The notes under the pieces: model-generated
What the model was told of the DNA's origin: nothing
Databases searched by the model: none
What the model saw: only the letters and a program-made list of their open reading frames with translations
Virus record (IMG/VR): IMGVR_UViG_3300025430_000014
Location: 30,682-94,681 of that record
Reading direction: 5' to 3' (one strand)
DNA length: 64,000 nucleotides
From: a virus
Lineage: Duplodnaviria > Heunggongvirae > Uroviricota > Caudoviricetes
Made by a program: the position numbers and the translations under genes
In this document: one piece after another, positions 1 through 57,468 of the stretch
How positions within the stretch are numbered: position 1 is the stretch's first letter
Layout of the letters: every line of letters begins with the position of its first letter

Positions 1-3000
1 TATAAAGCATTAGTTTTAGCACTTATTATACTATTACCAGTTGCTGGGTTAGTTCTAAAATCACCATATGCTGTACTACCATCAGATCCTCCACTATAAA
101 ATCTAAAAGCATTTGCTAAAATAGTAGTTCCATTTGTTTGTACACTACCATTGAAATATTTACCAGATGTAGCAAATGTTGATATACTACTATTAATTTC
201 AGAGTTTAATACTGTTGATGTATTAGTATTATAATAAGCTACATATTGTAATTCGTATGATCCTGTTGACCTAATATATCCTTCAAAAGTAATAGATACA
301 GATGATGTTACATAATTAGGTATTAAGGCCATATATTTAACACCACCATATGTACAAGTGACTAATTGACCAAGAGATACATTTGATTCTAAAGTTCCTA
401 CAGTACCATTGTATGCAGATTGAGTGTTAACATCATATGTTGAAACAATACATCCTTGATAGGGTGCACCTCTAGTTACATAAAATGTTCCAAAACAAGC
501 ATTGTAATCTAATAGAGTTCCATTATATATTGGATGAAGAAGTATTACATATTGAAGATAATCTCCAGTTCCTCCATTTATATTTCTATTTATATCTTTT
601 TTTACTGAATATCCAGAATCTCCCCATGTACCACCGTATACTGTTAATGGGGCAGTTGGTGCTGTAGTACCTATTCCTACGTTACCTGATGTATTCCAAG
701 TTATTACAGGATTTAATCCTGTTGTTGAACCAAAACTTCCTGAACTTCTATATCCTAAATTATATGAATTACCTGTTGATTGATACCATACTGCATTACT
801 TGCGCTTCCGTTTGTTTCATAATAAACTTGTAAGGCTGCTGCATTACCTGCATAAACAAAACTTCCTGTTTGCACACTACTTGAGAATGTAGCTGCTCCT
901 GTATTAGATAATGTTGCAATTTTAGACCAACCTCCATTATAAGCCCAATAATCTAAACCATAAGAAGCATTTAATTGTTGAAGTATTTGTTGAGATGTAC
1001 CTGATTGTACTAATGTCATATACGACCCTACTCCGACCGAATTGTTTCCTGTTTTTACTACAGCAAGAGAGTTTGAAGCACTTATATCTACTGCACTTAC
1101 ACTACTTGAGAATGTAGCTGCTCCTGTGGATGCTAAACGTAAAGCACCTGTTCCATCATTTACTGCAAATGAAATTCCATTATATCCTCTAATTACTGCA
1201 TCATTTGCTAATGAATTAGTTGAATAGTTCCCATTTGCAGAAGCATAGGCAAAATAAGTATTTACACTTCCATTTGTTATTATGTAAGAACCATAAGTTG
1301 AACTTTTCGTAATTGTAACATCTCCACTAAATCTTCCTGTACCATTAACATCAAGTTTGTAGCCTGCGTCTGTAGGGCTTGCTCCATATCCTATTGAAAT
1401 ATCTCCTCCACTAAAAATACGCATTCTTTCGGCTGATGAAGTAACTCCAAACCTTATATCATTATTACCATCAAGCATTGTGGCAGCAGTTGCAGAAGTT
1501 ACATCATAACCTAATAAAATACCTCTATCTGCTGCTGTTCCCGAACCTGTTAATAAATTTATACCTGCACCTATATAAAATTGATGTGCTGAACCTACGG
1601 CATCTAATAAAATACCATTTTGAGTAGTACCTCCTAATATTTCTAATTTAGCTGATGTTGTTGCATTTATAGTTAATGGACTTGCAGGACTTGTAGTACC
1701 TATTCCTATGTTAGTGCCATTATCATATATTATACTATTGCCTATTGTTGTACTTCCTGTAAACTTAGCTACATAGTTTGTTGTACCACTTATTGTACCA
1801 GCACCAGAGCTTCCTGAGCTTCCTGACGTACCTGCAGAACCACTTGTTCCTGAAGATCCACTGGATGCTGAGGTACCAGAAGAAGCAGATGTACCACTAG
1901 ATGCTGAACTACCTGAAGACCCACTGGTTCCTGAGCTTCCTGAAGTTCCAGAGGAACCATTGGTTCCTGATGTTCCATTAACACCTGATATTCCTGAACT
2001 GCCTGATGTACCATGTGTACCAGATGAAGCACTCGTTCCACTACTTCCTGAGGTTGCACTTGTTCCAGAAGATCCTGATGATCCTGATGTACCTGCACTT
2101 CCAGATGTTCCTGCAGAACCTGAAGTTCCATTAGAACCACCAGTTCCTGCACTTCCTGATGTACCATTAGAGCCAGCTGTACCAGAGCTTCCACTAGATC
2201 CAGATGTAGCTGATGTACCTGAAGATCCACTTGATCCACTACTTCCACTAGAACCACTTGTACCATTAGATCCATTAGTACCTGATGTACCACTAGAGCC
2301 ATTAGTTCCACTTGATCCACTAGAGGCACTTGTACCAGATGAACCAGAGCTAGCACTAGTACCTGAGGACCCTGAAGATCCTGAAGAACCACTAGATGCA
2401 CTTGTTCCACTAGACCCAGAAGATCCACTAGAACCAGAAGTACCAGATGACCCACTCGTTCCACTAGATCCACTTGTAGCACTAGTTCCTGAACTTGCAC
2501 TAGATCCTGAAGAACCTGAAGTTCCTGAACTTCCATTAGTTCCACTTGTACCTGAAGTACCAGAAGGAGCTTGGAAAGAAGTGGTTATATAAGAATAGTT
2601 AGCTCCATCTTCTGTATAAAAGTTAAATACAATAGATGGACTTCCTGAATTATTTGCAAGAAGTTGAACATAAATTCTATCAGTGGCATTTAAAGTGGTT
2701 CCTGGATAGAATGAATCAAAATAATATGAAAATGTTGTAGATGTTTGAGATAGTTGTACTGTACCTGTTGTAAATAATAATGTACTTACACCACCTGTTG
2801 TATACTTGTACACGTTAGCGTATACAGTGATTTGTGATGCTTTATTACTATTACATGTAATGTTTAAATTAAATCCCCATACACCAGGAGGAATAGTTGT
2901 AGTATTTGGCACACCTGAATCAGTGGCATAAGTTGCCCAAAGTTGTGCTGAAGCATTTGCTGCTACAGTCACTGTAACATCTTGTTCAGCAGCTCCTGTA

Positions 3001-5258
3001 GCTATTGGAGATAATTCTTTATATGTAGGAGATCCAAAAGCTGTATTTGTATTTGTTGATTGGTTTATATAATATAACTGTCCACCACCTATACCATTTA
3101 CACCACTTGTTCCTGTAGTCCCAGAAGTCCCAGAAGTCCCACTACTTCCGCTTGTTCCACTGCTTCCTGAAGATCCACTACTAGCAGAAGTACCACTTGA
3201 TCCTGATGATCCACTAGTTCCTGAAGAACCAGATGTTGCTGAGGTACCACTTGAACCACTTGATCCTGAAGAGCCTGATGTAGCACTGGTCCCACTAGAT
3301 CCAGAGGTTCCTGTTGTTCCAGATGATCCACTTGTCCCAGTAGTACCTGATGTTCCATTTTTACCATTAAGTAAATAAGACCATCCCACTTCTGCACCAC
3401 CTAATATACTTCCAAGACCTTCTATATTAGATGAAAATATAACTGTCCATGTATTTGCAACAATATTATGTGTTACAGCATTTATAACCCAGATACCTCC
3501 TTGACCAGTACCTCCATAACGATTAGCTTGCATAATTGCACTATCTGGACCGTTCAAAGTAATCCATGATTGCAATTTGGTAAACCATGCATCTGTATTT
3601 GCACCTTGTGCATTTGTTGCATTAAATTCTACCTGTGTAATAGTTCCAATACCTCCACTTTGTGGTGTTGGATAAAAATACCCTGCTATTGGAGGTTCAG
3701 TTGTTGGATCAGAAATCCAAAGTAATACATTACCACCTTCAAGACCATCAATACCACTGGTACCACTTGATGCTGAAGTTCCACTAGAACCGTTTGTTCC
3801 AGAAGACCCACTAGTGCCACTAGAGCCTGAAGAACCATTAGTACCATTTGTACCTGATGAACCACTAGTTCCAGCTGTACCTGAGCTTCCTGCTGTACCT
3901 GCTGTACCTGAGCTACCATCAGTTCCAGAGGATCCTGAAGATCCACTAGTACCAGATGATCCATCAGTACCGCTTGTTCCTGAAGAACCATCAGTTCCTG
4001 ATGTTCCAGTGGTCCCACTGCTTCCAGAAGATCCTGATGATCCTGAAGAGCCAGAAGAACCATCAGTTCCTGTAGATCCACTGGATCCTGATGTACCACT
4101 AGAACCAGAACTTCCATCTGTACCTGAGGTTCCTGAAGAACCATCGCTACCTGAACTTCCGCTAGAACCATCAGTTCCACTTGTTCCTGCAGAACCTGAT
4201 GTTCCATTACTACCATCAGTTCCAGAGCTTCCATTTGTACCACTTATCCCAGATGAGCCATCTGTTCCTGTTGTACCACTTGAACCATTTGTACCTGATC
4301 TTCCAGATGAACCGCTTGTTCCACTAGAGCCATCCGTACCACTAGACCCATCAGTTCCTGTAGTTCCTGATGATCCTGATGATGCTGATGTTCCACTGCT
4401 TCCAGATATACCTGCAGAACCACTAGTTCCACTAGATCCATTAACACCAGCTGTTCCACTAGAACCATTGGTTCCAGATGAGCCTGATGTTCCACCAGTT
4501 CCTGATGTGCCAGAAGATCCTGAGCTAGCTGATGTCCCACTTGTTCCACTTGTTCCATTTCCACCTGCTGCACCAGCTAAGTTTATTATCCATGAATTAT
4601 ATGTACCAGAACCTTTAACTTCTGTAATATATAATGTCATGAGCCCTGTTAAAGGTTCATAACCTGCTACAGATCCTTCAAAATAATGATTATTATCAAA
4701 AGCAACTAATACAAATTGTGCAGTTGAATATGCTAGTCCTGGTTGTGTAACAAGACTAATACTACCACCAATCATTAATGATGATAAGTTTATACCTGTA
4801 GTGGATGTTCCTAAATATTTATCTCCACTAACTCCTGATGTTCCTGTTGTTCCTGATGTGCCGCTACTTCCACTAGAACCTGAAGTTCCTGAAGATCCAT
4901 TGGTACCATGAGTACCACTTCTTCCTGAACTACCAGATGATCCAGATGACCCAGAGGTACCATTTGTACCTGCTGTTCCAGAGGATCCTGAGGATGCTGA
5001 AGTGCCACTAGTTCCAGAAGATCCTGAAGTACCAGAGGTGCCTGATGTACCACTTGTACCATAACTAAGACCACTAGTACCTGAGGTACCAGATGTTCCT
5101 GCTACAGCAGTGTGTACAGCAATATTTATCTTTTGTAAAGCTAATTCTAGAGTATCATTGGTATTGACACCTATATATATCAAATCCTCACCCTCGTAAA
5201 ATACACAGGCAGAATCTAATAATACAGGGCAGGTTTTTGCAGAACATGTAACATTCAT
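1..5258 (-). CDS. Giant collagen-like tail fibre / receptor-binding protein. The start codon is in the window (ATG at 5258-5256) and the C-terminus runs off the window start, so >1750 codons lie inside the window. An N-terminal ~48-aa conserved fibre module (MNVTCSAKTCPVLLDSACVFYEGEDLIYIGVNTNDTLELALQKINIAV) is followed by four Gly-X-Y repeat blocks separated by globular segments
   Basis: I translated the minus strand by hand from 5258 down: MNVTCSAKTCPVLLDSACVFYEGEDL...AVAGTSGTSGTSGLSYGTSGTSG. An in-frame stop lies at 5303-5301 upstream. The same frame (highest codon coordinate = 2 mod 3) reads GSSGTSGSAGTSGSSGSSG at 1801-1860 and TSASSGTSG at 3755-3779. The frame is still open at positions 1-60. 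The ORF track shows no ORF in this frame, probably because it is not closed inside the window. The track ORFs in the other frames (PEDPDDPDVP / QVLQDLVQ style) are shadows of this repeat. Confidence 0.8.
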   Translation of the reverse strand, partial: MNVTCSAKTCPVLLDSACVFYEGEDLIYIGVNTNDTLELALQKINIAVHTAVAGTSGTSGTSGLSYGTSGTSGTSGTSGSSGTSGTSASSGSSGTAGTNGTSGSSGSSGSSGRSGTHGTNGSSGTSGSSGSSGTSGTTGTSGVSGDKYLGTSTTGINLSSLMIGGSISLVTQPGLAYSTAQFVLVAFDNNHYFEGSVAGYEPLTGLMTLYITEVKGSGTYNSWIINLAGAAGGNGTSGTSGTSASSGSSGTSGTGGTSGSSGTNGSSGTAGVNGSSGTSGSAGISGSSGTSASSGSSGTTGTDGSSGTDGSSGTSGSSGRSGTNGSSGTTGTDGSSGISGTNGSSGTDGSNGTSGSAGTSGTDGSSGSSGSDGSSGTSGTDGSSGSSGTSGSSGSTGTDGSSGSSGSSGSSGSSGTTGTSGTDGSSGTSGTDGSSGTSGSSGSSGTDGSSGTAGTAGSSGTAGTSGSSGTNGTNGSSGSSGTSGSSGTNGSSGTSASSGTSGIDGLEGGNVLLWISDPTTEPPIAGYFYPTPQSGGIGTITQVEFNATNAQGANTDAWFTKLQSWITLNGPDSAIMQANRYGGTGQGGIWVINAVTHNIVANTWTVIFSSNIEGLGSILGGAEVGWSYLLNGKNGTSGTTGTSGSSGTTGTSGSSGTSATSGSSGSSGSSGTSATSGSSGTSGSSGSSGTSASSGSSGSSGTSGSSGTSGTSGTTGTSGVNGIGGGQLYYINQSTNTNTAFGSPTYKELSPIATGAAEQDVTVTVAANASAQLWATYATDSGVPNTTTIPPGVWGFNLNITCNSNKASQITVYANVYKYTTGGVSTLLFTTGTVQLSQTSTTFSYYFDSFYPGTTLNATDRIYVQLLANNSGSPSIVFNFYTEDGANYSYITTSFQAPSGTSGTSGTNGSSGTSGSSGSSASSGTSATSGSSGTSGSSGTSGSSGSSGSSGTSASSGSSGSSGSSGTSASSGSSGTSASSGSSGTNGSSGTSGTNGSNGTSGSSGSSGSSGSSGTSATSGSSGSSGTAGSNGTSGSAGTGGSNGTSGSAGTSGSAGTSGSSGSSGTSATSGSSGTSASSGTHGTSGSSGISGVNGTSGTNGSSGTSGSSGTSGSSGSSASSGTSASSGTSASSGSSGTSGSAGTSGSSGSSGAGTISGTTNYVAKFTGSTTIGNSIIYDNGTNIGIGTTSPASPLTINATTSAKLEILGGTTQNGILLDAVGSAHQFYIGAGINLLTGSGTAADRGILLGYDVTSATAATMLDGNNDIRFGVTSSAERMRIFSGGDISIGYGASPTDAGYKLDVNGTGRFSGDVTITKSSTYGSYIITNGSVNTYFAYASANGNYSTNSLANDAVIRGYNGISFAVNDGTGALRLASTGAATFSSSVSAVDISASNSLAVVKTGNNSVGVGSYMTLVQSGTSQQILQQLNASYGLDYWAYNGGWSKIATLSNTGAATFSSSVQTGSFVYAGNAAALQVYYETNGSASNAVWYQSTGNSYNLGYRSSGSFGSTTGLNPVITWNTSGNVGIGTTAPTAPLTVYGGTWGDSGYSVKKDINRNINGGTGDYLQYVILLHPIYNGTLLDYNACFGTFYVTRGAPYQGCIVSTYDVNTQSAYNGTVGTLESNVSLGQLVTCTYGGVKYMALIPNYVTSSVSITFEGYIRSTGSYELQYVAYYNTNTSTVLNSEINSSISTFATSGKYFNGSVQTNGTTILANAFRFYSGGSDGSTAYGDFRTNPATGNSIISAKTNAL
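1790..2575 (-). repeat. Collagen-like (Gly-X-Y)n coding repeat block D (~260 aa), with occasional Gly-to-Ala interruptions (e.g. GTSATSGS)
   Basis: Translation of 2041-2102 gives GSAGTSGSSGSSGTSATSGS. Shadow ORFs 1790..2545 and 1960..2592. Confidence 0.75.
3100..3365 (-). repeat. Collagen-like (Gly-X-Y)n coding repeat block C (~85 aa)
   Basis: Same periodic codon pattern; shadow ORF 3098..3400. Confidence 0.7.
3750..4575 (-). repeat. Collagen-like (Gly-X-Y)n coding repeat block B (~270 aa)
   Basis: Hand translation gives Gly at every third residue. The shadow ORFs 3686..4243, 3814..4662 and 4244..4573 mark the low-complexity extent. Confidence 0.75.
4830..5080 (-). repeat. Collagen-like (Gly-X-Y)n coding repeat block A (~80 aa; X/Y mostly Ser/Thr/Ala)
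   Basis: 9-bp periodic ggw wcw gat/agt pattern; translation GTSGTSGTSGLSYGTSGTSG... Confidence 0.75.
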
Positions 5259-5372
5259 AGTAATAGGTATGTATGTAAAACAAAAAATGCACAGAGTGCA
5301 CTAATTGTAACAAAAGTAGTTAAAAAATCCATCTATCCAATGGGTGACAGCAAACTATGCTACATAATATAG

Positions 5373-8300: not shown

Positions 8301-10295
8301 GTAGTCTATGTTTTCAAAACTCTTAAATGTTTCACTAGCATCTTTTAAGAAGTTCACACCCACATTAGTTAATGGAGCAAAGTTTAGCTGCACTTGTAAA
8401 TGACGAGTGGCTTTAGAAAGTTCTTGCAGTCTTAGAAATTTCTTAAACTTATCTTCAGCAGCAGTGTCTGCTTTATAAAGTTTTTCATATTGAGCATTCA
8501 AAGAAGTTACAAGCTCATTTATTCTTTTGTTTCCTGTATTTTCTGTATTAATAGGAACAGGAAGTAAGTATGTTTTAGTTTCTTTTACATTATCAAACTT
8601 ACCCACCTCAATAGAAGATAGAAGTAGTTTGCTTTTATTATCACCTTTTATAGAGTTTCTATAGTTAGCAATAAATGGAACCATTCTAGCTCTTCTCAAC
8701 TGATTAGGTTTAATCCCATAGTTATATAAGATTTTAGAATACTCTCCCATTTGCTCTTTCCATTCTTTTTTCTTTAATGGTTGAATATCTTCATTAGTGG
8801 TTTTATCTAAATTTGAGAACTTCCAGTCATATATATCCACTTTAATGCCAGTGGTTACATCTGGTGCAATTGCAATTAAATCTATTGTAGAAGCTAGCAT
8901 ACCTTTCACCTTTTCATTCACCACCTTTCTTTCAACAAGAAATCTTGTACCTTCAGGATATGAACTTACTAAATCTTCTATATATGATCTTACACTTTTT
9001 TGTATAGTGGAATTTAATGGACTATTAATAGTTGTATTAGTAAACACAGGTTTACGATAACCATCTTTATCAATCAAGTCATTAATTATTACATTCTCTA
9101 TAAACCCATGTCCTTGCAATCCCCATTCTTGCATCTGACTATCTTGATTCTTTTGAAAGTCAGTACGTTCAATGTTATTCTTACCCTTTACTTTTTCAGT
9201 AACACTTAATGCGATTTTCTTAACACCATCAAGTAAATAATGTCTTTTATCTGTAGCAGTGGCAGGATTTAATACTAAACGATTATCCATACCTGAAACT
9301 TTATCATAAAAGTCATCCACTTGATCTTTATTCAAGCTAAGATATACACCATCTTCTTTAATATCAGATACAGTTCCTTTCACCTTACCAGCAGCTATAT
9401 CTTTAGCTGTCTTACTAAATATATCTACATTACTTTTATTATATAAGCCTTTGACAAAGTCTAATACAGAATCCCAAAGTCTTTGAGCTAAGTTTCTATT
9501 AGCCTTTTCCACTGTAGTGGGTTGTTCTGTATTTCCTTCTGTTTGATTTACAATATGTCTTGTAATCAATTGATCTACAGCTTCTTTCTTTATCTTACGA
9601 ATATTTGGTTTACCATCAGATAATTGGTATTCTGGTCTAGTGCTATATTTATCAAACACTTCTTTATATATCTGATATTTACCAATCTCACTAATCATCT
9701 TAGTCATTAACTGAGGAGCAGTTTGTTCTACAATAGCTGTAGCTATGTGAACTACTTCTTCTGTTAATGCTGCATTTTCTCTACCAACAGCAAGTGCTAC
9801 AACACCTCTAACAGTATCTGCAACACCATTCACTCCATCAATATCAAGTCCAGTTTCTTTAGCATATTTATTTAAATCCTGGAAATCAATACCCATTTGC
9901 TTTCCAGCCTCTTTCATTATATTAAGAGTTTCTTGAGAAGCCTTAGATCCATATTCATCATTTAACTGAAAGAATTCACCTCTCTGTTCTGCTGTATATC
10001 CACCTCTTTCCATCTCAGCTCTTTGTTCTGGAGAAAGTTCTGTGGATTTTCTATTATACACATCTAGATATTTCTGTGCTAGTTCATTAGAAGGGTCAAT
10101 GGTAAAAGATCCTTTTTCACCTTCTTTTATTACTATATCTTTAAAATCTCTATTAATTTTACTAATAGATGCAGATGACTTACTGGGGTTTGGAAAAAAG
10201 CCAGTGGTATCTGAAAGGATAGCACCATCTTTAGCAAGACTAATCTTTACTGAATCTGTTATATCTTTCTTAATATCTAATAAACATTTTGCCAT
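5373..10295 (-). CDS. Giant virion protein (1640 aa), largely alpha-helical, function unknown. Candidate ejected/cargo protein
   Basis: Complete ORF. Its ATG overlaps the stop of the upstream 3755-aa gene (TAATG at 10293-10297). It sits in the giant-gene block. Confidence 0.85.
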   Translation of the reverse strand: MAKCLLDIKKDITDSVKISLAKDGAILSDTTGFFPNPSKSSASISKINRDFKDIVIKEGEKGSFTIDPSNELAQKYLDVYNRKSTELSPEQRAEMERGGYTAEQRGEFFQLNDEYGSKASQETLNIMKEAGKQMGIDFQDLNKYAKETGLDIDGVNGVADTVRGVVALAVGRENAALTEEVVHIATAIVEQTAPQLMTKMISEIGKYQIYKEVFDKYSTRPEYQLSDGKPNIRKIKKEAVDQLITRHIVNQTEGNTEQPTTVEKANRNLAQRLWDSVLDFVKGLYNKSNVDIFSKTAKDIAAGKVKGTVSDIKEDGVYLSLNKDQVDDFYDKVSGMDNRLVLNPATATDKRHYLLDGVKKIALSVTEKVKGKNNIERTDFQKNQDSQMQEWGLQGHGFIENVIINDLIDKDGYRKPVFTNTTINSPLNSTIQKSVRSYIEDLVSSYPEGTRFLVERKVVNEKVKGMLASTIDLIAIAPDVTTGIKVDIYDWKFSNLDKTTNEDIQPLKKKEWKEQMGEYSKILYNYGIKPNQLRRARMVPFIANYRNSIKGDNKSKLLLSSIEVGKFDNVKETKTYLLPVPINTENTGNKRINELVTSLNAQYEKLYKADTAAEDKFKKFLRLQELSKATRHLQVQLNFAPLTNVGVNFLKDASETFKSFENIDYTKLSKDDINNKLANLLEIKNSAEKYTTLSETFLSQFPKEGMSKEDQATLSRLDAIGESTKRMMTKINDLQREFVVQLALKEGLTTEDTKYSALDAEKEVDGLTRTFKEGSKLPANLVKLGSNLVQNSKSIINIHSSRLIDDFSNILIPLQKEADARGKSAFSMVGKVSENNIELIKKISKKFYEDSENAKTNKDKQFFLDNMDVDAYMKQATDIINKGIKDIDDTVFSQDDEQNEKRRDGQKNKLKNSLDITRTSFNGYREWQFNDLFKKNMLESKHLSQEYVEMSKSKNALDMWNFLTALNNRGIAAGYLSNKGSSFFPLIEASTLQRLANSGDKLAEAKDLFKDAYTVRVSEARDYSKLDPETHTLRKEIPKPFTRTDRAISQLSTDLNKVGTLWIKALIEYEANKQIENTLLTLYNVEKNKGHVVVDQNGNIVFENGAPKIDYSSNKNAEILQTIIDDGIYGLKENLSSIGNVSIKSITEKFAKDSDTAEQRQLSAQKLLRNSNKLIQAQAVGLKLLVAAPHYLSTHFQGFINSGQFYTFADWERNHIKAVIPGGLSIAQKLLLNEIVPLTDDLSTEKRREIASKQGLYNYMAAWSFNDVLMSTASFAAKKLQITNALAFNDNSMVRNGKIVNIRDYVSAQDRAVKYKATQEERRALERTFEARVKELKEKESLTNIAQVKDHSIEIPGVSDEALAKYRTMVTSFGRKVGDLMSEDDKAGYRRDTLMRSFVMFRNWIPKGIETRTGDIQRNLETESWEYGRARAFLKTWAHVGLTGIARMIDVMTGTDKGLKIMDEILQQKKDDYFKKQGKELEITKEEFYDLMRRELVNQTKELGVLVGLMGLIFAVGAAAPGSNDPDKNKYNFWAKLANKLSDRLAFYYNPLSFQNMAKGSFLPAIGILGEAAKFIKAASTLGYAEAIGDQKLMDHTHPTKYFVDMFPAANQVQNEWLPYFFPDISKAEGVKTTTQSRQE

Positions 10296-13200
10296 TATCC
10301 GCAGTTATTTTCGTTATTATTTTCAATTGGAGGTAATCCTTCTGGTGTGATAGTTGTATCTACTTCTGATTGTGTAAATAGATCTTCATCTTCTAATAGA
10401 CCTTCTACATTTTGTATTCCACCAAAGTAAGCCATGATGTTTTCATTTGGTATAGTCTCATCAGATGTGATAAATCCATTATCTATTACAGACTTTCTTG
10501 GTGTAAGATAGAACTCATTAGCAAACTTACCATCACCCCAAGCATTAATTGCTTTGTAAATATAGTTCAATTTTCCATCACCTCTATCATATGAACCAAT
10601 TTTTTTGAACAGTCCTTTGTTTTTATAAGACAAATCTCCTTCTTTTCTCATCTTAACTTTCTCAGCTTGAGATATATTCTTTTCCCATGTATATACAAGA
10701 ACATCACTGTCTGATTCTTTAGATAGAGCACTGATTCTTAATAGCTGAGGAATATCACCAGCCTTCATAGCATTGTATACATCTGCATGAAATGCCATGT
10801 TTTCATTGTATGTACGCTCATTATATATAGGATCATATTTAGCCTTAGCTGACATATGAGGAACAACATCACTATAGTTCCAGAATGTTCTTTCAAATAC
10901 ATTTAGTTTCTCGAAATCTGGAAGAGTTGATAACTGTTCCAAATCTGATAATGTATCATTATACACTCTCTTAATATCTTCATAAGGAAGGAATGATGTA
11001 AATGATATATTAGAATCAGTAAGACCTGATTGTAATACAGATAGATTAACAAGTTTATTATATAAATCTTCTTTATCTTCCCCTTTCAAATATTCTTTTA
11101 ACTCTTGAAATGCATGTATCAATTGGTTTTGATCATACACTTTATTGTTCTTATTTCTAATTTGAATGTTATTAACCTCACCAGGAGCACCAAAATGTGG
11201 CTTTAAGATGTTAATCACCTGATTATTATATAAAGGATGACTAGCATCTTTTTTAACATTCTTAACAAAGTTCCAAACCTTCTTAGCTGTATTATCATCT
11301 CCTATTAACTGAGACTTAATTTTCTTATTCAATCCTTCATTAGTTTGAACAGCCCAGTCAAATAATGTAGCTACAGCTCTTTGAGAAGTTCTTACAAAGT
11401 CTCTATCATTCATATCTATATAAGGAGTGAGAACTTTTTCTAATATGTCTCTTGTTCTTCCTTGATCAGCTTTTAATATTGTAGATAGAGCATTTCTTAC
11501 ATCACTTATATTTTCCATTAACTTTCCAAGGAACGAATTCTTTAATAAAGAATCTGCAGAATTAAATATACTATCTCTAGCAGCATCCAATTGTTGCATT
11601 TTTCTGAACAATAAGAATGGATCATTGAATGAAGCTGTATCAAAGTTAGTACCTTGTGTAAGCTTAAACATATGTTCAGCCATCTTAGCATATTTCAAGA
11701 ACTCATTAAGAATAAATCTTTGCTCAGACTTATCCACCTTACTAAGATTAGTTTTTCCTACATTATCAAGTAGCTTTTCTTTAGAAGGCATTTTACTAGT
11801 GAAATATCCACTACTAACATATCTCTTCTGAACTTTATTAAGTATTGTTGTATTAAATAACCATGTATACCCATTCTTTTCTAACTCACGTAAGTAATCA
11901 CGAACAATTGGTTGGTTCATGAAATAAGCTGTTGTATCAATAGGTACTCCAATCTTAGTTAAGAACATCCATGTAGAGGCTACATTTGGTGTAGCACCTA
12001 ATTCCATAATCCATGGACCCTTAGATATATCCACATAACCATCAATAAATTGTCCAAGAATATCAGAGATGAATTCACCATCTGCATTCTTAATCATTGA
12101 TAATGTAGGTTTGCCATCTATTTGATTATACTTCTCAAACTTAATTTTACCATCTCCTAAGAACTTAGCATCTGCAGCACTTAATAATCCTTTCTTAGCA
12201 TTAAAATCTAGAACAATAGGAGATCTCTGATTTAAAGAATGATTTGTTTGGTTCACAGCTGCAATACCAATTGCATATTTACCAGTTACAAATGCATGTC
12301 TTAATGTAGACATAAATCTTCTACTCAACATGTTACCAGTGGATTCATAATCAAATGATCCAAGTCCCATTTTATCTACAATTGTTTTAGCTAAACCTTT
12401 TAATTGATCAGCTGAGTTAGGGGTCGTAAGTCTTTCAAAGTTTAAAGGATGGCTAATTAAATTCTGTAAAGATTGAATATAAGCATTCTCTAAATTTCCT
12501 TTACCTTCACCTTTTAAAGATAACATTCTAGGAACACCCCTTTCACTATCATCTACATTTTTTAAGTAGATAGATAGTTTATCTATATCAAAATCCGATC
12601 CAACCTTCTTCACTAAAGCAGAAGGGATTACCACAGAATCACCAAACTCTTCAGGAAGAAATCTAGCTATTTTAAATACATCAATTGAGTTCTGTTTCTG
12701 TGTAGGAATACGAAAAGCTACACCTTCTAATATACCAGAATCTTTTAATTCTTTAATAAGTTCTTCATCAGATAGATCTGACTTAAACCATCTACCCACC
12801 ATAATCTCACATGTGCGTTGACCATCCTTATCTTCATAGAACTTAAGAGTATCAGATGTATATGCATTCTTACCATTCACCTTTACAGCTTCCACCTTAT
12901 TAGATTCTAATAATGTAGAAGGAACTTGCACTTTCATACCACCATTAATCTTAGGACTAATTACTTCTCTATCAGCAATAGAATATAAAATGTTTCTAAT
13001 TTGTTGGTAAGCAGGAGTGGCTTCAATCACTACATCACCATCTTTAAATCCTTGTAATGCATCAATGATATTGTCATTAACTTCTCTTCTAGTTAACTCT
13101 CTTCTTAATGTATCAGCTAACTTATCAACATTAGTTAACTTATATCCTCCATCTACTTTCTCGATATTAAATGTTTTCAATAGTGAGTTAACACCACTTT

Positions 13201-16200
13201 CAATCATTCTCTCAAGAATATTTTGGTTATTCTTTATCTCTTTATATAAAGGAGAAGCTTTTTCTCTTTCAGCTTCTGTTTTCAAACTGTACCAATCTTC
13301 ATAACTTCCTTTGTAATCAATAGGAACACCTGCTGCCATGAAATCTAATGTAGAAAGCTTGGTCATTTGAGATCCTCTTGTCACTTGGTTATCTTCTTTA
13401 GAAGGAACCTCAGACTGTACACTCATGATAGAGAATGGTACATTTACTATTCCATTAAATGGAGCTTCATTAAAATCTCCAGTGTTTGGATCATATAAGT
13501 TATGAACTTCTTCAGCTCCTACCTTTCTACCACTTTTATATACAGCATAGTCAATACCTTCAGCTTGCATCTTGTTATATAACTTAACAGCGTTAGATTC
13601 AGCATTAAGTTCTTTTGATGCTCTATAAGATAGGACAGTTAAGGCAAACTTATCTAATACAATATCATTATAGTTTTGACCATTTGCTTTATTACCAGTT
13701 ACAATAGGTTTACTAGGAGTGTATGTACGTCTGATTTGAGGATTGCCATCTCTTAATGTTCTCTTTTCAGCACTAGTTAACTTTTCACCTTTATCTTGTT
13801 TCTCCCATGCAATATCATATTCATATTGTCTTTCTTGTTGTGTATCCCACTCACCAGCTCTAATTTTAAAGTTACGATGTGCAGGTAGAGCAATAATACC
13901 ACCACCATCTGTTTCTTCCCATGCACCATAATTAGATAGATCATTAGTAGCAAATACATCACCAAGAGTTATTGTTTTGAAAGAATCTACATTAAAGTCT
14001 GTATGACCAATTTTACCCTTTGCAAATTTCTTATTCCAAACATTATTTAAAGCTGTATTCATTTCTACAGAATCAGCAATGATAGATTGTCTAGGAGAGT
14101 TAAAGCTTTTGATACGTTTTAATTCATCAGAGTATTGATATGGATCAGAATACAGCACCTTATGAAGCTCTATATTATTCATAATATAGTTAGCAGATAA
14201 TGTAGCTAATTCTCTTTCTAATTCTTCTGGTTTCATTAATTCTTTACCAAATGATAAACCTTCTGTCTTAAAGCCATTATCATATGCCTTTAATAAGTTG
14301 TAATCAATTAGTGTTTTCTTTAATGATTCTTTTTCTTTATTTATAAAGTCTGTAACTTTTTCAGCAATCTGATTAACTTTAGTATCTGCATCAGTAAAAC
14401 TATCATACACTTGTTCAGCTGTACCAAGTCTAGAGATGACATCATTGTGCAACTCTTCTCCTAGAATAGCCTTGAAGAAACGTAAGTCATTAGTGTTTCT
14501 ATTTTTTGCTACAGTACGATCTTCCTTAGCTAAGTTAAACTCATCTATAAAATATCCTCTGAATTTATCATGTATAGCTTTATAGTCTGTAAGAATATCA
14601 CTAGTATTAATTCTATTACCCATGAATAACATCCACTCAAGAGCAGCATCACCAGGAATTAGATTTAAATAGTATCCTTCTTTATTAAGATTGATCTCTT
14701 GTAACAGTCTATCTTTATAAGTTAATTTAGATGATTCTTTCTGTTTACCAGTTTCTTCATCAATAACACCACCAGCATATCCAGTGTGCATTAGTTGTTT
14801 AGCATCAAATTCTGCATCCTCATCTGCCTCAATTCTATCTCCAGATTCTTTATCAAACATTGAATACAGTAAGTCAGAATTCTTGCTAAATGTATCAGTT
14901 AGTAAGTATTCATATTGTGTACCTGTAAGTTCGCTTAAGTTATCAATTTGTGATAGATGATCATATAAATCACTAGCAGCATTTGTTCCAATAAATGATT
15001 GAGTCATCTCACCATTAATATTGTAGAATGTACTACTAAATTCAGGATTATCCATCTTAGCTTTAATCTCAGCTAATTGACGCAAACGCTTATCAATATC
15101 TAATGATTTACCAGAGAAGCTCACCACCTGTTTAGCTTGAGCAATACTCTGTCTAATACCATTCACTGCCTTAGAGAATAATGATTTCTCAGGCATTGTT
15201 GATAGTTTCTTATAGTCAAATTCAATACCAAGTTCTTTTAAGAAGTCTACTTGTGATTGTAAACTATCAAGTTTTACTTCTGTAATAGCACTTGCATTAC
15301 CATAATATATATTCTTATATGAGTTGTAAGTAAAGTACTTACTTCCATTATCTATAGATCCTTTAATATCTTCAATAAAATCTTGTTGTGTTTGTCTAGC
15401 AGCTGTAGAAAAGTTAGCATCTCCCACCTGTACATCACCATTTGCTAATAAATATACATTCTTAACTGTAGGAGATTGTTTCTTAAATGTTTTCCATAAA
15501 GAAGCCAATAGCTGTAAATCAGTCTTATTATCTAATTCATCTAAGTTTCTCATCTTACTAAGACGATTATAAAGCTTAGTGTACTTAGAATCTTTTATAG
15601 ACATGTCTTTAATTCTGTTCACCATTTCAGTGATGTTACGAGAATTATGTGTATTATTCATTACACTAATAAATGTCTCACTCATTGGAACTAATGTATA
15701 GCCTCCAATAGAAGATAGTTTATTAGTACCATCTATATTAGTAACAGGAAGACTAGCTAGCAATAATTTAATTGCTGCACTAGCTTTTTTCATATGATCT
15801 ATTTTACTAGCATCACCATATGCATCATCTTTAGACCTATCCATTGTAGGAATTAACTCATCATTCTCATCAAACTCAATACCATAAGACTTGATATATT
15901 CTTCATGTTTAGCTTGAATAGCTTCCCAGTTATCTAATATATTTCCATATAAAGTGTTATTTGCCTCAATTGCTGCATTTACTTCTTCAGGAGATTCATC
16001 AGTCATCTTTTCTAACTGAACAACATTCTCAGCAATTAAATCACCTAATTCATCTTGAAGCTTTTGATAAACTTCTGCTTTATTAGTGGTACCACCTACA
16101 AGATCAAATAATCCTTTATTAGATTCAAATAAATCTTTTACAGTGGTATAAGTCATGTGTTGCATGATATCATTAATCTGTCCACCTGTAAATCCAGCTA

Positions 16201-19200
16201 ATTTAAACTCACTGTTTTCATCACCAATAGCACTATCTATATTCACTATACCCTGTTGAGCAAATGATAATCCAGCTAAGTTTGGAGAGTATTCTGCATA
16301 ATAACCTGTACCAATATTCTCAAATAATCTATTTGTATTCTCTTCTGCTTTAGTTCCAACAAAGAATGTTTTAATCCAGTCTATAATCTGTGAGAAGATT
16401 CTAGATATTAATGACTTACCTTCTTGAGCATCTTGTTTTAATGTACGATCTCTGAACTCTTCAGCTAGTTTTTCTTTAATATCTTGATCTGTAGCTTCAG
16501 AATAATTAATCTCTCTAGCAGTGAATACATCTGTATAAGAACCTTTTCTGTTTCTAAATTCAGTTCTTATAGCATCTTGTTCAGCTTGAGAAGTAAACAT
16601 CTTCCATACAGCTTCAAACACCTCATGATAAGCTGTTCCCACTTCTGCATTTTGATATAAATAGATAGCACCATCCTTTAACATACCCCAAGCTAATTTA
16701 CCATTAGTTGCTTGAATAATGTTATTCACTTTATATACAGGAATATTTGGTAGGGTTTTACCTATCCATTGTTCTACCTTCTTCCAGTTTTCTGTTTGAA
16801 AATTATTTAAGTTACTATTAATCTGTAGTCTATAATCACTTCCTCTCTTGCTATCTCCTTGTTGCTTTCTCTGATTAATCTTTTGCTGTAAGCTAGGATT
16901 CACCTTAGGAGCTTCAGCAGTAATAGGGGCTTCAGGAGCAATGGCTGCTTGTTCTTTAAGTTGCTTAGCTATAATATTTCTAATAAGATTCTTAGCTATA
17001 GCAAATGCTTCTTCATCAGTTGAATCTGCTGTAACACCAGTGCCAGGAATTTCTGCTAATTTACCAGTGATTGTTTCTAATGTTATCTTAAATGCACCAT
17101 CTTCATTCTCATCAGGAAGTTTTATACCTTCAATAATTGCAGCATTAGGATCAAACTTTTCTGGATCAACACTAAATGTAATAGCTACATTTCCAAGTTT
17201 ATCAGAAAGTTTAATTGTATTCTTTTCTCCATTAGTATCAAACTTCTTACTCTCTTCTTTAGTGGTAGTCACCTTAGTTTCTTTAGCTGGTAAAGCTTCT
17301 GCAGAACTACTACTATTCTTATCTGCTAATGTAAAATAGATTCCTTTTCTATTAGTATCTGTAGCATTTTTAAGAGGTCTGATTTGTGTTGTCAAAGGAA
17401 TATCTACACTAGATCTTTTTCTTCCTTCTGGATCATTAGGAGATAATAAATATGATTGATAGTTCTGCCACTCTCTGGTTTTAATACCATCAGCATCAAT
17501 ATCTGTAATTTCTGTATACTTAGAGTTCCAAGGTTTTGTTTTAGAACCTTTTGTTAAAGATGAATTAACATTATGGTATAATCCAGCAAGTCTATCTATA
17601 ATAGCTTCTTTATTCTTATCAAGCTCTTTAGGATCAAGATAAAACTCTTGTTCATCTTTACCAATCTTTAATTTCATGTTCTCAAAGAACACACTACTAT
17701 ATCCAGCTTCTTTTCTATTTCCTTGAGCATCTGTAGGAGTACCCCAATATACCACTGATTTCAACCAGTTGTATAACATTTGAGATTCTCCAGATTTAAG
17801 ATTACCATCATTAATTAAGTTAATGGCAAGCTTATTAATAGCATTATATATTAATGTAGCTTCTGTACGAGTGAATTGTCTATTATCCACTTTAACCATT
17901 CCGTTAGCAGTGAATACTGTAGGCAATCCTTTGATGTTATTCATAGTGACAGATCCTCTTGTTTGAGCATCATCACTTGTAGCAACACCTATCACTCTCT
18001 TTGTTCTTAGTTGTTTATCAGTAACTAATCCAGCATCTGTTACAGGAGTTCTAGCATTATAATCTCTTTCAAACTTACCAGAAGCACTTAATTCTCCTAC
18101 ATAATCAGGAGTTCCAAAAGATGCTTGTATTTGGTATAAGTTAGATGTAGGAGAATCTAATGTTTGTTTTCTCCAGTTATTATATTCTTTTGTAAGAGCT
18201 TCTACATCTTCTTCTGATGTTGTATCTCTAAACATAGAGCCACCACCAGACCAAGTTAAAGTTTTAGGAAACACTTGATATATAGTGTTCTCTAATGTAG
18301 GTTTAGTTAATTTTTTACCATTAACATCTACAAAATATTTCTCACCACTAACAGGATCTACTCCCATTACAACTAATGCAATAGTTTGTTTAGGATCAAT
18401 ATCTTCACCACCTGTACCTTTATCTTTCAACCATTGTGTAAGACCAGGTACACCAATTATAGCTTCATTACCTGATGTAACAATAACACCACGAAAGTTA
18501 TCATTACCAGGTAGGTCATAAAAGTTAGCACCAAACTGATTAGCACGCACATGATGTGCTGCTAAAGGAGTCTTTTGAGAATATCCTTCAACAGGAGCAC
18601 TAGTACTATTAACTACTTGCTCATCTGTTTTTTTAGGATCTATTTCATAAGGTCTATCAAAATCAGCTGTAGGAACACTATCTGTATCTGCAGTAGTTTT
18701 TAACTCTTTAGAGAGATTATCGTTTTGTGTAAGTTTTTGCTTGGTAAGTCTTTCATCTAACTCAGCTTGACTATCTTCTTTAAACTTCTTCTCTATAGCA
18801 TCAGTTAACTCTGCATTGTTTAATGCATTAATATATTGTAACTTATCAGTTCCTTCTGTAGGCTTTTCAATACTAGAGAACTTCTCATCTTTTAAAGTTT
18901 CATCAATGGCATTATCCATTGTTTTCTTAAGCTCTTCAGGATCATGTTCTGTATTGGCTATATTATATCCTGTAAATTCTTCTGGAGTTAGATATTCTGT
19001 AGTTCTATTAGGGTTGGTTATCTGATATTTACCATCAACTAGTCCTGCATTAAGAGTTATCTTAGGAGCAAGAGTTAATGTATTATCTTCTCTATGAACA
19101 AGATCAGTTAAAGGATATGTATCTCCAACATTTAATTCTTTGTCAACTGTTTTATCAGTGTCATTTAAATCCACTTGTTTTATAGATGCAGCAGTGTTAG

Positions 19201-21562: not shown

Positions 21563-21576
21563 CTTGAATTCTTTTT

Positions 21577-24099
21577 TTAAAATAATTTACCTTTGAAATT
21601 AGGATTGTAATGTCTAATTATATCTATTATACTAGCATCATCTAATCCACTAAAAAATTCACTGGCTTTATCAATTGACATTCCTTTATCAATTTGTATT
21701 GGCATCCATCCATCTTTTGTTTTTATCTGAATTTTTGGAAACACTTTATTATTATTACCATACTCTTCATGAAGATCTCCCACTACAGTTATACGTTTAG
21801 CAAGTGGGAAGGCAGACTGTTGCCATTTAGCTCCTTCTGGGCTTTCATTAGCAGCATTTGTTGTACCGCCTGTCATCATCATCTCGCCTTTAATTTGAAC
21901 TGAATTGTTTGTCTGAGCTTCTGGAAGTTGGGCTATATCTGTATAACTTAATGTTCTTTTTTGAACACTTCCATCAGGACCAGTTACCCAAAGTTGTTTA
22001 GTGACACCATCATTATATATACCATATTTAAGTCCAGCTGCTACAGATTTATCAGCTAACCATGAATTTACTTTATTCTTATCCCAACTATCGTACCCAC
22101 CCACATCATGTCTATCTACCTTACTTAAAGCATCTGCTATTCCTGACCATCTTGATTGTGCAGTTGGTGAAGGGGTATCAATAGGAGTTACTGTAGGAGC
22201 ATATTGTGGAGTTTTAGAAGCAATTATTTCATTATATTTTTCATTATATTTATCAAGAGCTTCATGTCTTTTTGCAAGTATAGGATTAGTCCATGCTATA
22301 ATTTTATTTTTATCACTATTTTTATTTAATAGTAATTCTTTATCAGTAAGTCTACTTAAATCTTCTATAACAAATTCACCTTGACCCCATGCTCTTCCAG
22401 AAAGAATTTTTGTTTTAGGCTTTTGGGCAAAATCAAAAAGTTCTCTTGGTGTAAATGTAACATTTCTACCTGACTCATCTTTGATAGTAACTGATTTTTG
22501 ACCAGCTATAGATTGATTAACTTCATTTTGAAGATTCTTCATCTCAGGATCATTCTCTACTTGCTCATGTGCTGTATTCAAAACAGCAGCATTTAACCCT
22601 GCTTGTCTTCTATTTTCTAAAATAGAATTTACAGCAGCTTTGTATTCAGGACCAATTGGATTTTTAATAGGACCATGATAAGATCCATTAATCATATTTT
22701 CTACATCAGTGGGTGTAACTACAACTGTTTTATCTGGACCTAGCTTTCTAGCATTCTCTTGAATTTTTGCAGCTAGTGCTGATACACCTGCAGTTGCAGC
22801 ATTTGTATAAGTTGCCACTTGACCATTTACAATATCTTCAGGTTTTTTAACTGGTTGTTCATTTCCTCCAACAGCTACAAATGGTTCTCCTGTTCCACCA
22901 TGAGCTACCCAGAAATCTAAATCATATTTTTTTCCAGATAGTGCTTCTTCTGCTAAATTATGTCTTCTTGTTTCCTTTTGAGCAGCTGCTTTTAATCCAT
23001 AATCAGCAGTCCAATGATCTGCATCTAATATTGGATTATTTACATATTTTAATACACTTTCTTCCCAAGAATGAGAATTTGCAAATTCTTTTATAGTTCC
23101 TTCTTTATATAAATCTGCCTTAACTTGATTAGGATCTCTAGCAATAGCTGCTAGTTGACTGTTTAATTTTTGTGTTAGTTCTCCTCTATATGCTCCACCT
23201 TCTCCAATTTGTTTCTGTAATTCTGCTATAGCTGTTTTAGATTGATTAACTATATTTGCATTAGCTGAATTTGTTGCAGCATATTTCTGTAATGCTGCAA
23301 TCTTATCTGTAACTGTTTGTATACCAGCTTTATATTGATCTTGTGCATGATTAGCTAAATCTTCTGGAGTGTAGTTTCTAAACTGGTACATACCAGATAT
23401 TTGCATTTGACGAAGATCATTTGCATCAAGAGAAGATCTTATTGCATTTTCTATTTTTGCAGAAGTGATTCCTTTGAACCCATTCTCAACCATTGCCTTA
23501 GCTGTCTTATTATAATCTATATTTCCATTAGCATCAGTTGCCCAAGGAACTTCTGTATCTGAACCACTTTCATGAAGGCTTTTAAGTACCTCAATCATTT
23601 TTGGTTGTATATCTCTATGTTCTATATATCCTCCTGAATATGAAGCATTTACATCTGTATTACTCAAATAAGCATTAGCTCCTTGATCAAAAAACCAATC
23701 ATTATCAACTGAACCTTTTCCTGATTTATTGGCAGCTTGTTTATCTGAAACTCCTTGTTTTAATCTCTGTGTAGATGCAGCAGCATTTTGTACAATAGGA
23801 TCCTTGATAATAGATGTAGCCATTCCTCCTACAGAATTAACAAGCTGTTGATTAGAGAAATCTCCAGCAGCAACTGTTCTTAGATTATTACCTAAATCAT
23901 CAAGTTTTGATTGTAAATATTTTTTTTGAGACTCATTAGCAATGTCCATACCAGCCACATTATCTATCTGTGTCTGAATTTTTTGCACTCCTTGATCATA
24001 TTGCTGTTGCTTCCATTGACCCACTTCTGTCATAGCCTGTATAGGAAGCTGTGAGATGTAGGGATTAAATTGTGATATTTGATCTGTAAATGATGCCAT
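21577..24099 (-). CDS. Large virion protein (840 aa), unknown function
   Basis: Complete ORF in the structural operon; start ATG at 24099. Confidence 0.8.
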   Translation of the reverse strand: MASFTDQISQFNPYISQLPIQAMTEVGQWKQQQYDQGVQKIQTQIDNVAGMDIANESQKKYLQSKLDDLGNNLRTVAAGDFSNQQLVNSVGGMATSIIKDPIVQNAAASTQRLKQGVSDKQAANKSGKGSVDNDWFFDQGANAYLSNTDVNASYSGGYIEHRDIQPKMIEVLKSLHESGSDTEVPWATDANGNIDYNKTAKAMVENGFKGITSAKIENAIRSSLDANDLRQMQISGMYQFRNYTPEDLANHAQDQYKAGIQTVTDKIAALQKYAATNSANANIVNQSKTAIAELQKQIGEGGAYRGELTQKLNSQLAAIARDPNQVKADLYKEGTIKEFANSHSWEESVLKYVNNPILDADHWTADYGLKAAAQKETRRHNLAEEALSGKKYDLDFWVAHGGTGEPFVAVGGNEQPVKKPEDIVNGQVATYTNAATAGVSALAAKIQENARKLGPDKTVVVTPTDVENMINGSYHGPIKNPIGPEYKAAVNSILENRRQAGLNAAVLNTAHEQVENDPEMKNLQNEVNQSIAGQKSVTIKDESGRNVTFTPRELFDFAQKPKTKILSGRAWGQGEFVIEDLSRLTDKELLLNKNSDKNKIIAWTNPILAKRHEALDKYNEKYNEIIASKTPQYAPTVTPIDTPSPTAQSRWSGIADALSKVDRHDVGGYDSWDKNKVNSWLADKSVAAGLKYGIYNDGVTKQLWVTGPDGSVQKRTLSYTDIAQLPEAQTNNSVQIKGEMMMTGGTTNAANESPEGAKWQQSAFPLAKRITVVGDLHEEYGNNNKVFPKIQIKTKDGWMPIQIDKGMSIDKASEFFSGLDDASIIDIIRHYNPNFKGKLF

Positions 24100-37257: not shown

Positions 37258-37988
37258 TAATTTGTTGGTTTTGCATTAGGTGCTTGACCATCTACATTAT
37301 CTGAAGTCATATCTGATTTAATGTTAAAATATGTACTTAGTAATCTCTGAGAGGTAAGATCTAATACTTGTTTTTCTAAATATCCAGGACATCCATATTC
37401 TTTATCTAAAGGATTTACACACAACTCATCTGTTGTATAGCTTCCACATCCACAACCAATCGTTGGATACATAATCTCATTAGGAACATCTTCTTCAAAG
37501 AATGCAGAGAATCGTATAGCTTTTAGTAAAGGATTGTTTACATAAACATATCCTCCATTAGCTATCCAATAGTATTGTTCATTTTTTATTATAGGAAGCT
37601 TTAATAAGTTTAAATATCTATTGATAGTAACCTCTTTAAACTTCCTTCCTTGACCACCCATTGCATTTATTGAATAAACACCTTGGATGAGATATTGATA
37701 GTTTCCTTCACTCATGCGAGGAAGCTTATACTTACTTCTAGCAACTTGACAAGGATCTGTATATCCACAGCATTCAGAAATAGGAACTTCTATCATCTCT
37801 AAACAAGGGATGGTAGTAAATAATGTATCAGTAGCCCAAAGCTTTCTGAGATTAGTTTCTCTCTTTATTAATAACTGTGTATTGTTTTTAATCTCAGAAG
37901 CTATCGCTCTGTTGGTTATTAGACCATCAGAGGATAGCAATTTGTGAGTTGACCTCACATCTGAAACTAATTTACGTAATGTTGCCAT
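37257..37988 (-). CDS. Hypothetical structural-operon protein (243 aa)
   Basis: Complete ORF; 1-nt overlaps on both ends. Confidence 0.7.
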   Translation of the reverse strand: MATLRKLVSDVRSTHKLLSSDGLITNRAIASEIKNNTQLLIKRETNLRKLWATDTLFTTIPCLEMIEVPISECCGYTDPCQVARSKYKLPRMSEGNYQYLIQGVYSINAMGGQGRKFKEVTINRYLNLLKLPIIKNEQYYWIANGGYVYVNNPLLKAIRFSAFFEEDVPNEIMYPTIGCGCGSYTTDELCVNPLDKEYGCPGYLEKQVLDLTSQRLLSTYFNIKSDMTSDNVDGQAPNAKPTN

Positions 37989-54940: not shown

Positions 54941-55123
54941 TTAGTTAGTTATAATACCAGCTTGTGTAGCTGATAATTTGATTAAGCTAGGAGATATCAC
55001 ATTGTTTAAAAGGTTGGTTATCTGCGTATTAGCTATAATTTTTACATCATCTGATACACCTTCTGTAGTACATAGAGCAGCAAGCTTCTCTATTACAATC
55101 CATGATTCTATTACTGGGTTCAT
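54941..55123 (-). CDS. Small protein (60 aa)
   Basis: Complete ORF, ATG 55123. Confidence 0.45.
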   Translation of the reverse strand: MNPVIESWIVIEKLAALCTTEGVSDDVKIIANTQITNLLNNVISPSLIKLSATQAGIITN

Positions 55124-56397: not shown

Positions 56398-56409
56398 AAT
56401 TAGTTAGAG

Positions 56410-56417
56410 CAAAGATA
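56410..56417 (-). promoter_or_regulatory. Candidate Bacteroidota sigma-A -7 element (TAnnTTTG: TATCTTTG) ~12 nt upstream of the regulator gene ATG
   Basis: Minus-strand sequence tatatctttgctctaactaattATG. Confidence 0.3.
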
Positions 56418-57037: not shown

Positions 57038-57074
57038 ATTCGATATAACCTGATAAAAATCAAAATCTAAAATC

Positions 57075-57461: not shown

Positions 57462-57468
57462 TGTAAGT

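Follow-up and report, generated by a model that had tools for sequence, protein, structure and literature searches.

A giant tail-fibre gene with proline-free collagen-like repeats in an uncultured crAss-like phage

The window that we analysed is a stretch of 64,000 nucleotides (nt) of the viral record IMGVR_UViG_3300025430_000014 (positions 30,682 to 94,681). The first 5258 positions of the window are occupied, on the minus strand, by a gene for which an earlier note, made from the sequence alone, had proposed the role of a giant tail fibre with collagen-like Gly-X-Y repeats. We found that it is a real tail-fibre gene of an uncultured crAss-like phage, that it encodes 2318 residues, and that about one third of its product consists of collagen-type Gly-X-Y repeats.

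The reading frame and the full length of the gene

Translation of the minus strand from 5258 to 1 gave 1752 codons with zero stops, thus confirming the uninterrupted frame proposed earlier. The gene starts with ATG 5258, the first start codon downstream of an in-frame TAG that lies 15 codons upstream. The start methionine of the homologues matches this position; the closest of them, the metagenomic protein P0121, opens with 'MNVTCSAKSCPVILDS'. When the spacer in front of the gene (5259..5372) was read directly, no Shine-Dalgarno-like sequence was seen in it. The neighbouring gene encodes a protein of 1640 amino acids (aa), and the exact same protein sequence is present on 14 public contigs.

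To this DNA correspond the contigs L002 (ENA), L004 (Logan) and L006 (JGI), which are identical to the window across the shared stretch. The earlier note had expected the gene to run off the window start and to need extension, and the identical contigs indeed complete it: it continues for 566 aa past the window (L002 20294-21994) and has a full length of 2318 aa on L002 and of 2330 aa on the related contig L001. The long frame is not an accident of assembly, because the same DNA was obtained in independent ENA, Logan and JGI assemblies from different sources. The Gly-X-Y frame has no stop, and its DNA is the same in these three contigs.

Over the repeat DNA, both strands together carry seven shadow open reading frames (ORFs) that reach 60 aa or more, and six of them reach 100 aa or more. 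The statement that ORF finders report six such ORFs instead of the real frame is correct as far as the shadow ORFs are concerned, but the gene callers used on the public contigs did call the true gene of 2318 or 2330 aa. The real frame was absent from the ORF list because that listing omits ORFs running off the window.

The features of the gene, in the order of its translation, are as follows (all on the minus strand):

5259..5372: intergenic spacer, 114 nt between the stop (5373) of the upstream gene for the 1640-aa protein and the fibre start
5100..5258, aa 1-53: N-terminal adaptor module, sequence MNVTCSAKTCPVLLDSACVFYEG...LQKINIAV
4818..5099, aa 54-147: collagen block 1, 31 triplets, one Ala-for-Gly, register slip at Tyr66; best Pfam Collagen stretch at aa 91-145
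4575..4817, aa 148-228: node D1, small β-barrel with the motif GD.Y...GLAY..AQ...W.VNL.GAAGG
3729..4574, aa 229-510: collagen block 2, 94 triplets, three Ala-for-Gly; site of strain polymorphism
3366..3728, aa 511-631: node D2, non-repetitive segment
3078..3365, aa 632-727: collagen block 3, 32 triplets, three Ala-for-Gly
2562..3077, aa 728-899: node D3, resembling a jelly-roll β-sandwich of the galactose-binding-like or carbohydrate-binding-module (CBM) type
1797..2561, aa 900-1154: collagen block 4, 85 triplets, eleven Ala-for-Gly
1..1796, aa 1155-1752 of 2318: start of the distal non-collagen region, opening with the junction motif GTTNYVAKFTG...NIGIGTTSP

Composition of the Gly-X-Y blocks

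The four blocks comprise 242 triplets, that is 726 residues or 2178 nt, in agreement with the earlier description of Gly at every third residue over about 2.1 kb. The description needed two refinements. At the first position of the triplet Gly was found in 224 cases and Ala in the remaining 18 (7.4%), and no other residue occurs there; in addition, the register of block 1 slips by one residue at Tyr66 (GLS-Y-GTS). All 18 Ala-for-Gly sites have the same context, G[TS]S-A[ST]S-G. The Pfam Collagen model matched the protein in 10 stretches with an E value of 8.5e-77, and the longest unbroken run, located in block 2, has 67 triplets, so that the long uninterrupted (Gly-X-Y)n characteristic of the PF01391 collagen-like proteins is present.

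The X position is occupied by Thr (113) or Ser (109) in 92% of the 242 triplets, and the Y position mostly by Ser (178, or 74%), followed by Asn (22), Ala (13) and Asp (12). The claim that X and Y are almost exclusively Ser, Thr or Ala with very little Pro therefore held for the prevalence of Thr and Ser, and we refined it in two respects: Pro is completely missing, and Y also accommodates Asn and Asp. Collagens have a trimerisation or registration domain next to the repeats, and this role could be played here by the C-terminal Peptidase_S74 domain described below and by the collagen-flanked nodes D1-D3.

The C-terminal Peptidase_S74 domain

Extension of the gene beyond the window, as had been suggested in order to find its C-terminal part, showed that the protein ends in a Peptidase_S74 domain ('chaperone of endosialidase'). 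The domain lies at the extreme C-terminus (aa 2212-2272 of 2318) and was identified with an E value of 2.3e-13 and a score of 50.6 bits, against a cutoff of 22. Entry 6f45_A of the PDB, a long tail fibre distal subunit, aligned with it (E 1.6e-8), and the putative catalytic motif S2212-D-K-R-L-K2217 falls on SDRRIK of that protein. Serine with a lysine five residues downstream is the dyad spacing of autocleaving intramolecular chaperones, and S2212 and K2217 fit it. The same domain was matched by 665 phage records, most of which bear the annotation long tail fibre distal subunit. Such a domain with its SDKRLK motif characterises phage fibres and spikes that trimerise by themselves.

The N-terminal module, the nodes and the distal region

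The earlier note placed a fibre N-terminal module ahead of the repeats, and the 53-aa module was found again in other proteins. With it begin the syntenic fibre genes of L010 and L011, two diverged relatives from IMG/VR, the latter without collagen, and likewise the metagenomic proteins P0121, P0122, P0123, P0126 and P0128; the phmmer E values were 1e-13 to 1e-21. No match to it was found in the PHROG or Pfam models. Presumably the module attaches the fibre to the tail. A related motif (blastp E 5.6e-6) is present in a 231-aa protein encoded at 39957-40652 on the minus strand, where a non-periodic, mucin-like poly-Thr/Ser linker (about 45 residues) comes after it and a small domain forms the C-terminus; this protein could be a second appendage using the same docking motif.

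Node D1 can be assigned with confidence to the β-barrels. It is flanked by collagen in every case, often occurs in repeated copies, and has 843 cluster representatives in metagenomes, although neither Pfam nor PHROG holds a model of it. Homologues of D3 were recovered by an iterative hidden Markov model search over the proteins already retrieved, and its fold resembles the CBM-like jelly roll. Node D2 had no sequence match in Pfam, PHROG or PDB and no homologue among 390 retrieved proteins; none of the three nodes belongs to a PHROG family.

The distal region measures about 1050 aa overall. Its junction motif is common to many fibres without collagen; in the part lying within the window it is accompanied by a second motif, NVGIGTTAP, and by a conserved globular domain at aa ~1570-1720. 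Because its homologues each cover at most 40% of it, we consider the region to be a mosaic. No PDB sequence match to the distal 1050 aa was obtained at E<=1.

Position in a crAss-like structural module

Between 5 and 54 kb every large gene is encoded on the minus strand, and together these genes make up a virion module. It contains TerL (PHROG 6681), the portal (PHROG 6547), the major head protein (PHROG 11589), a crAss muzzle protein (PF25731 crAss_MUZ, E 6.4e-37) and tail ring protein 1 (PF24228 CrAss_Ring_1, E 8.5e-8), so that the proteins by which crAss-like phages are recognised are found together in one module. The best relatives of TerL were those of Leptolyngbya phage Lbo-JY46 (39.8% aa identity), of the Cellulophaga phages phi4:1 and phi17:2 and of gut crAss-like phages. 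No cultured phage comes close at the DNA level: neither the fibre region nor 20 kb of the structural module gave a megablast match among 50,697 phage records. At its distal end the module closes with the fibre gene, which is its last large gene. This position, the Peptidase_S74 end and the occurrence of the N-terminal module in syntenic fibre genes support the identity of a giant tail fibre.

Just beyond base 1 of the window, at L002 21978-22787, a gene for a 269-aa Laminin_G_3 or concanavalin-like lectin protein overlaps the fibre stop by 17 nt. Its product matches PHROG 8510, 'virion structural protein', and could be a fibre-associated adhesin.

Variation of the repeats among relatives

The repeat DNA is periodic at 9, 18 and 27 nt, with copies 60-80% identical, and had been regarded as a hotspot of recombination and length variation. 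Within the 2.2 kb that encode collagen, the longest exact repeat measures 25 nt, while random synonymous codon choice, resampled 200 times, gave a mean of 22.8 nt (range 18-32). The observed value matches random codon choice, and the DNA is therefore a poor substrate for slippage; the periodicity is held at the protein level and the codons are fully scrambled.

We then compared L001 and L002, which are otherwise identical over 24.9 kb, and found that 48 of their 55 differences fall in block 2. In L001 an 81-nt patch stands in place of a 45-nt patch, which adds 36 nt in frame (12 aa, four triplets). No donor of the L001 patch was found elsewhere in the fibre gene, the best candidate having 55/77 identities. 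Simple slippage was accordingly rejected as the origin of the +12-aa allele, and the missing donor points to recombination with a diverged allele. Of the hotspot claim, the concentration of strain differences in block 2 was thus borne out, but slippage on the periodic DNA is unlikely.

The comparison of block lengths between related phages, which the earlier note had recommended, revealed a wide range. The contig L009 (IMG/VR contig 3300000553_000036) represents a strain about 1% diverged, with identical lengths of the collagen blocks, and L001 has four triplets more. In L010 (14743-22652), whose neighbour gene is 58% identical, there are three consecutive collagen-like genes of 548, 645 and 886 aa, and a gene on the opposite strand (21231-22652) is probably a fourth. 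In L011 (14783-18274), with a neighbour gene 75% identical, the 53-aa N-terminal module is kept, the shaft is without any Gly-X-Y and the C-terminal domain is a different one (GFLPPRMTT...). At larger distances the shaft is thus completely plastic, and a conserved adaptor carries exchangeable shafts.

Two contig ends deserve mention. In L003 the fibre sequence changes, after an NVGIG motif, into the distal part of P0018, an unrelated fibre. Either a module has been swapped here or the assembly is chimeric; the end of this contig (L003 19650-19754, ERZ27272001 k141_139556) is a Nextera adapter, translated as LLYTSPSPR. In L009 a sharp divergence was seen in the last ~80 nt (18600-18682), right after the collagen/distal junction motif; it may be a recombination boundary or a contig-end artefact.

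Comparison with known collagen-like and chaperone-capped fibres

Some phage fibres and spikes, such as the K1F endosialidase and T5 pb1, carry a C-terminal intramolecular chaperone. In S74-capped fibres the chaperone folds β-helical or β-structured shafts, whereas in the present protein a collagen shaft precedes it by about 1050 residues and its cleavage is putative. With the S16/T4-like long tail fibre distal subunits (PDB 6f45) the protein shares the C-terminal domain, the Ser-x4-Lys motif and the terminal helix.

The collagen-like lateral fibres of E. coli Shiga toxin (Stx) and lambdoid prophages, EPclA and phi24B gp61, likewise place a long Gly-X-Y shaft between a part for attachment at the N-terminus and a domain for trimerisation or binding at the C-terminus. 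For EPclA a trimeric triple helix has been demonstrated by experiment; it has Pro in about half of the X positions together with many charge pairs, and its melting temperature is 42 °C (PMC3368898). The present fibre is without both Pro and charge pairs. The shaft of phi24B gp61 has about 325 residues and is interrupted mid-way (bioRxiv 10.64898/2026.04.10.717836). In comparison with EPclA and gp61, the present shaft is more than twice as long; globular nodes divide it into four blocks, and Peptidase_S74 caps it. The EPclA-type domains PfN (PF08400), PCoil, PfC (PF06820) and Pf2 (PF03406) were not detected in it by Pfam at E<=0.1.

Closer relatives were found among proteins of uncultured aquatic phages that are annotated as 'Collagen triple helix repeat' or 'Tail fiber protein' (UniProt accessions beginning with A0A6J5 and A0A6J7, and Virus NIOZ-UU157) and among metagenomic proteins of about 400 aa (P0121-P0240). 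They share with the present fibre the succession of N-terminal module, G-T/S-S collagen, D1 and collagen, and also Pro-free Ser/Thr repeats and the GTS-A(S/T)S-G motif. They differ in size, being mostly 300-1300 aa long with one or two short blocks in comparison with the 242 triplets found here, and in the frequency of Ala-for-Gly, which in the present fibre is 7-12 times higher. We also examined a sample of 91 D1-containing proteins that was unbiased with respect to composition. Pro occupied 22% of their X positions; six of the 91 were Pro-free, none of these being among the seven proteins with at least 100 triplets, and the largest of the whole sample had 167 triplets. Ala stood at 0.6% of the Gly positions in the sample, compared with 7.4% in the present fibre. 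This fibre is therefore an extreme case within its family; the Pro-free G-T/S-S type and the GTS-A(S/T)S-G motif do recur in other members.

Collagen-like phage shafts have long been known, as cyanophage P-SSM2 orf028 and the 'Bacteriophage collagen' of Smith et al. 1998 illustrate (both by way of PMC1079782). In contrast to the present gene, orf028 comes from the T4-like myovirus lineage and contains Pro, and no node or chaperone architecture has been described for it there. The literature on crAss-like phages and collagen and on Pro-free natural triple helices yielded nothing relevant, and no experimental study of a natural triple helix lacking Pro in this way was found in the searchable literature. 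Collagen-like and S74-capped phage fibres are therefore nothing new in themselves; the present fibre is notable for its size, the absence of Pro, the near absence of charge, the frequent in-register Ala and the multi-node layout.

A model of the fibre and its alternatives

We consider it probable that the gene product forms a lateral tail fibre of three identical chains, with a 'rods and beads' design, by which an uncultured crAss-like podophage adheres to its host. The N-terminal module of 53 aa would dock the fibre on the tail. The C-terminal Peptidase_S74 domain would trimerise three chains and then remove itself at Ser2212 by means of the Ser-Lys dyad, leaving a mature chain of 2211 aa, and the distal mosaic of ~1050 aa together with the jelly-roll node D3 would supply binding surfaces, probably for carbohydrate. 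These steps are drawn from the identities of the domains, and the later ones are conjectural. With the chains in register, the four blocks would zip into triple helices of about 27, 81, 27 and 73 nm, or ~208 nm in total at 0.286 nm per residue, and the three globular nodes would re-register the chains between the rods and serve as joints. As Pro is missing and charge is almost absent, the stability of the rods would have to come from backbone hydrogen bonds, from hydration of the Ser/Thr hydroxyls, from tethering of the rod ends by trimeric nodes and possibly from O-glycosylation. At the 18 in-register Ala sites the rods would probably have local soft spots. Related phages freely swap distal modules and shafts of different length, which would tune reach and host range. 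Thus chaperone-nucleated folding, self-cleavage, the triple-helical rods, the node joints, carbohydrate binding by D3 and the distal domains and the Ala soft spots are all what we infer from the protein.

Several observations weigh against this model. Replacements of Gly disturb the collagen helix, and here 7.4% of the Gly positions carry Ala. Pro was found at none of the 484 X and Y positions and charged residues at only 18 of them (13 Asp, two Arg, two Lys and one Glu), so that of the known means of stabilising collagen neither Pro/Hyp nor charge pairs are available, the polar Ser/Thr component alone being present. The bacterial collagens have on average 19% Pro in X (PMC8968730), and the stabilisers of the characterised phage and bacterial collagens are absent from the present repeats (PMC3368898, PMC8968730). 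The window genes that were scanned with Pfam included neither a glycosyltransferase nor a hydroxylase, most of the genome lying outside the window. The PHROG 'tail fiber' matches of the protein were rejected as independent evidence, since every aligned stretch consisted of collagen repeat. Finally, we infer both the triple-helical state of the rods and the attachment to the tail rather than to the head.

The absence of Pro and the scarcity of charge predict a low propensity for the helix, and the blocks might instead be disordered, perhaps O-glycosylated mucin-like tethers that space the nodes and the distal binding domain from the virion, with no triple helix. Ser/Thr linkers do belong to the repertoire of this phage, as the poly-Thr/Ser linker after the related N-terminal module at 39957-40652 demonstrates, and the collagen-like shaft of phi24B gp61 was unresolved in cryo-electron microscopy and is considered flexible (bioRxiv 10.64898/2026.04.10.717836). 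A disordered tether, however, would have no need to place Gly so exactly throughout 242 triplets or to admit Ala alone in its stead. Ala is the only residue other than Gly at the first position, and we therefore regard this as the steric signature of a position on the triple-helix axis. The periodicity is also kept in the diverged L010 and in hundreds of metagenomic homologues despite the scrambled codons, so that selection maintains it, and the ends of the blocks always directly abut conserved nodes compatible with a trimer. We thus think it unlikely that the blocks are disordered.

Somewhat less likely still is a virion fibre of the head-fibre or 'whisker' type, seated on the capsid or the collar and serving environmental adhesion rather than primary receptor recognition. 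A rod of more than 200 nm would be extreme for a podophage, and a CBM-like node lies mid-shaft; furthermore, collagen-like segments also occur in virion proteins outside the tail, and the protein matched PHROG 38766, 'virion structural protein', with an E value of 6e-35. Against such a placement, Peptidase_S74 is typical of tail fibres and spikes, the gene follows the tail (muzzle and ring) genes and is situated away from the capsid genes, and the syntenic L011 gene shares the N-terminal module and otherwise resembles metagenomic fibre proteins.

It is very improbable that the repeats fold as polyglycine-II helix bundles or sandwiches, reportedly seen in the phage S16 gp38 adhesin and the snow-flea antifreeze protein, and not as a three-chain collagen superhelix: each chain would have the same polyproline-II-like backbone and the sole PDB sequence match of the protein is the S16 long-tail-fibre entry 6f45, but this match is limited to the C-terminal chaperone domain, outside the repeats, and polyglycine-II bundles are made of short strands joined by turns or loops with more than one Gly per triplet, whereas here there is one Gly per triplet in runs of up to 67 triplets with no turn-forming break.

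Beyond the homotrimeric tail fibre itself, we tentatively raise a stronger possibility, which we hold to be rather less likely than its opposite. A natural (Gly-Thr/Ser-Ser)n sequence without imino acids and essentially uncharged may form stable triple-helical rods of up to ~80 nm, held only by end-tethering nodes and by Ser/Thr hydration or unrecognised glycosylation; the GTS-A(S/T)S-G motif might then be a programmed hinge and D1 a new class of registration domain.

Since collagen-like phage shafts have been known since the 1990s, the existence of the gene as such changes little. Its value is that of an extreme and clean test case, with 726 Gly-X-Y residues, no proline and almost no charge, in which the rods are cut by compact, separately expressible nodes. 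Should the rods prove to be genuine triple helices, neither imino acids nor charge pairs would be indispensable once both ends are tethered, which would be relevant to the design of recombinant collagen materials; if the novel stabilisation is real, it would represent a regime outside the rules of Pro/Hyp and charge pairs. The locus is also a clear case of a 53-aa adaptor with interchangeable shafts in close crAss-like relatives, which have no collagen gene, one giant gene, or three or four collagen genes. This can be of use in the prediction of host range and in the annotation of the 'collagen repeat' proteins that aquatic viromes contain in large numbers and without names.

Other genes of the module

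Directly upstream of the gene for the 1640-aa protein, on the minus strand, lies an ORF of 3755 aa (10295-21562), which shares base 10295 with the next gene and had no Pfam or PHROG match. At 27450-30008 (minus strand) an 852-aa protein of the tail/virion part of the module contains a histidine phosphatase domain (His_Phos_1, E 1.6e-20), which is unusual for a gene of a structural module. A 416-aa protein encoded in the middle of the virion module (37988-39238, minus strand), between ring-like and structural genes, matched PHROG 704, 'DNA repair exonuclease' (E 1e-43), and had no Pfam match. At about 55000-58000 the orientation of the genes and the GC skew change sign; the minus-strand structural genes stop near 56.4 kb and are followed by small plus-strand ORFs.

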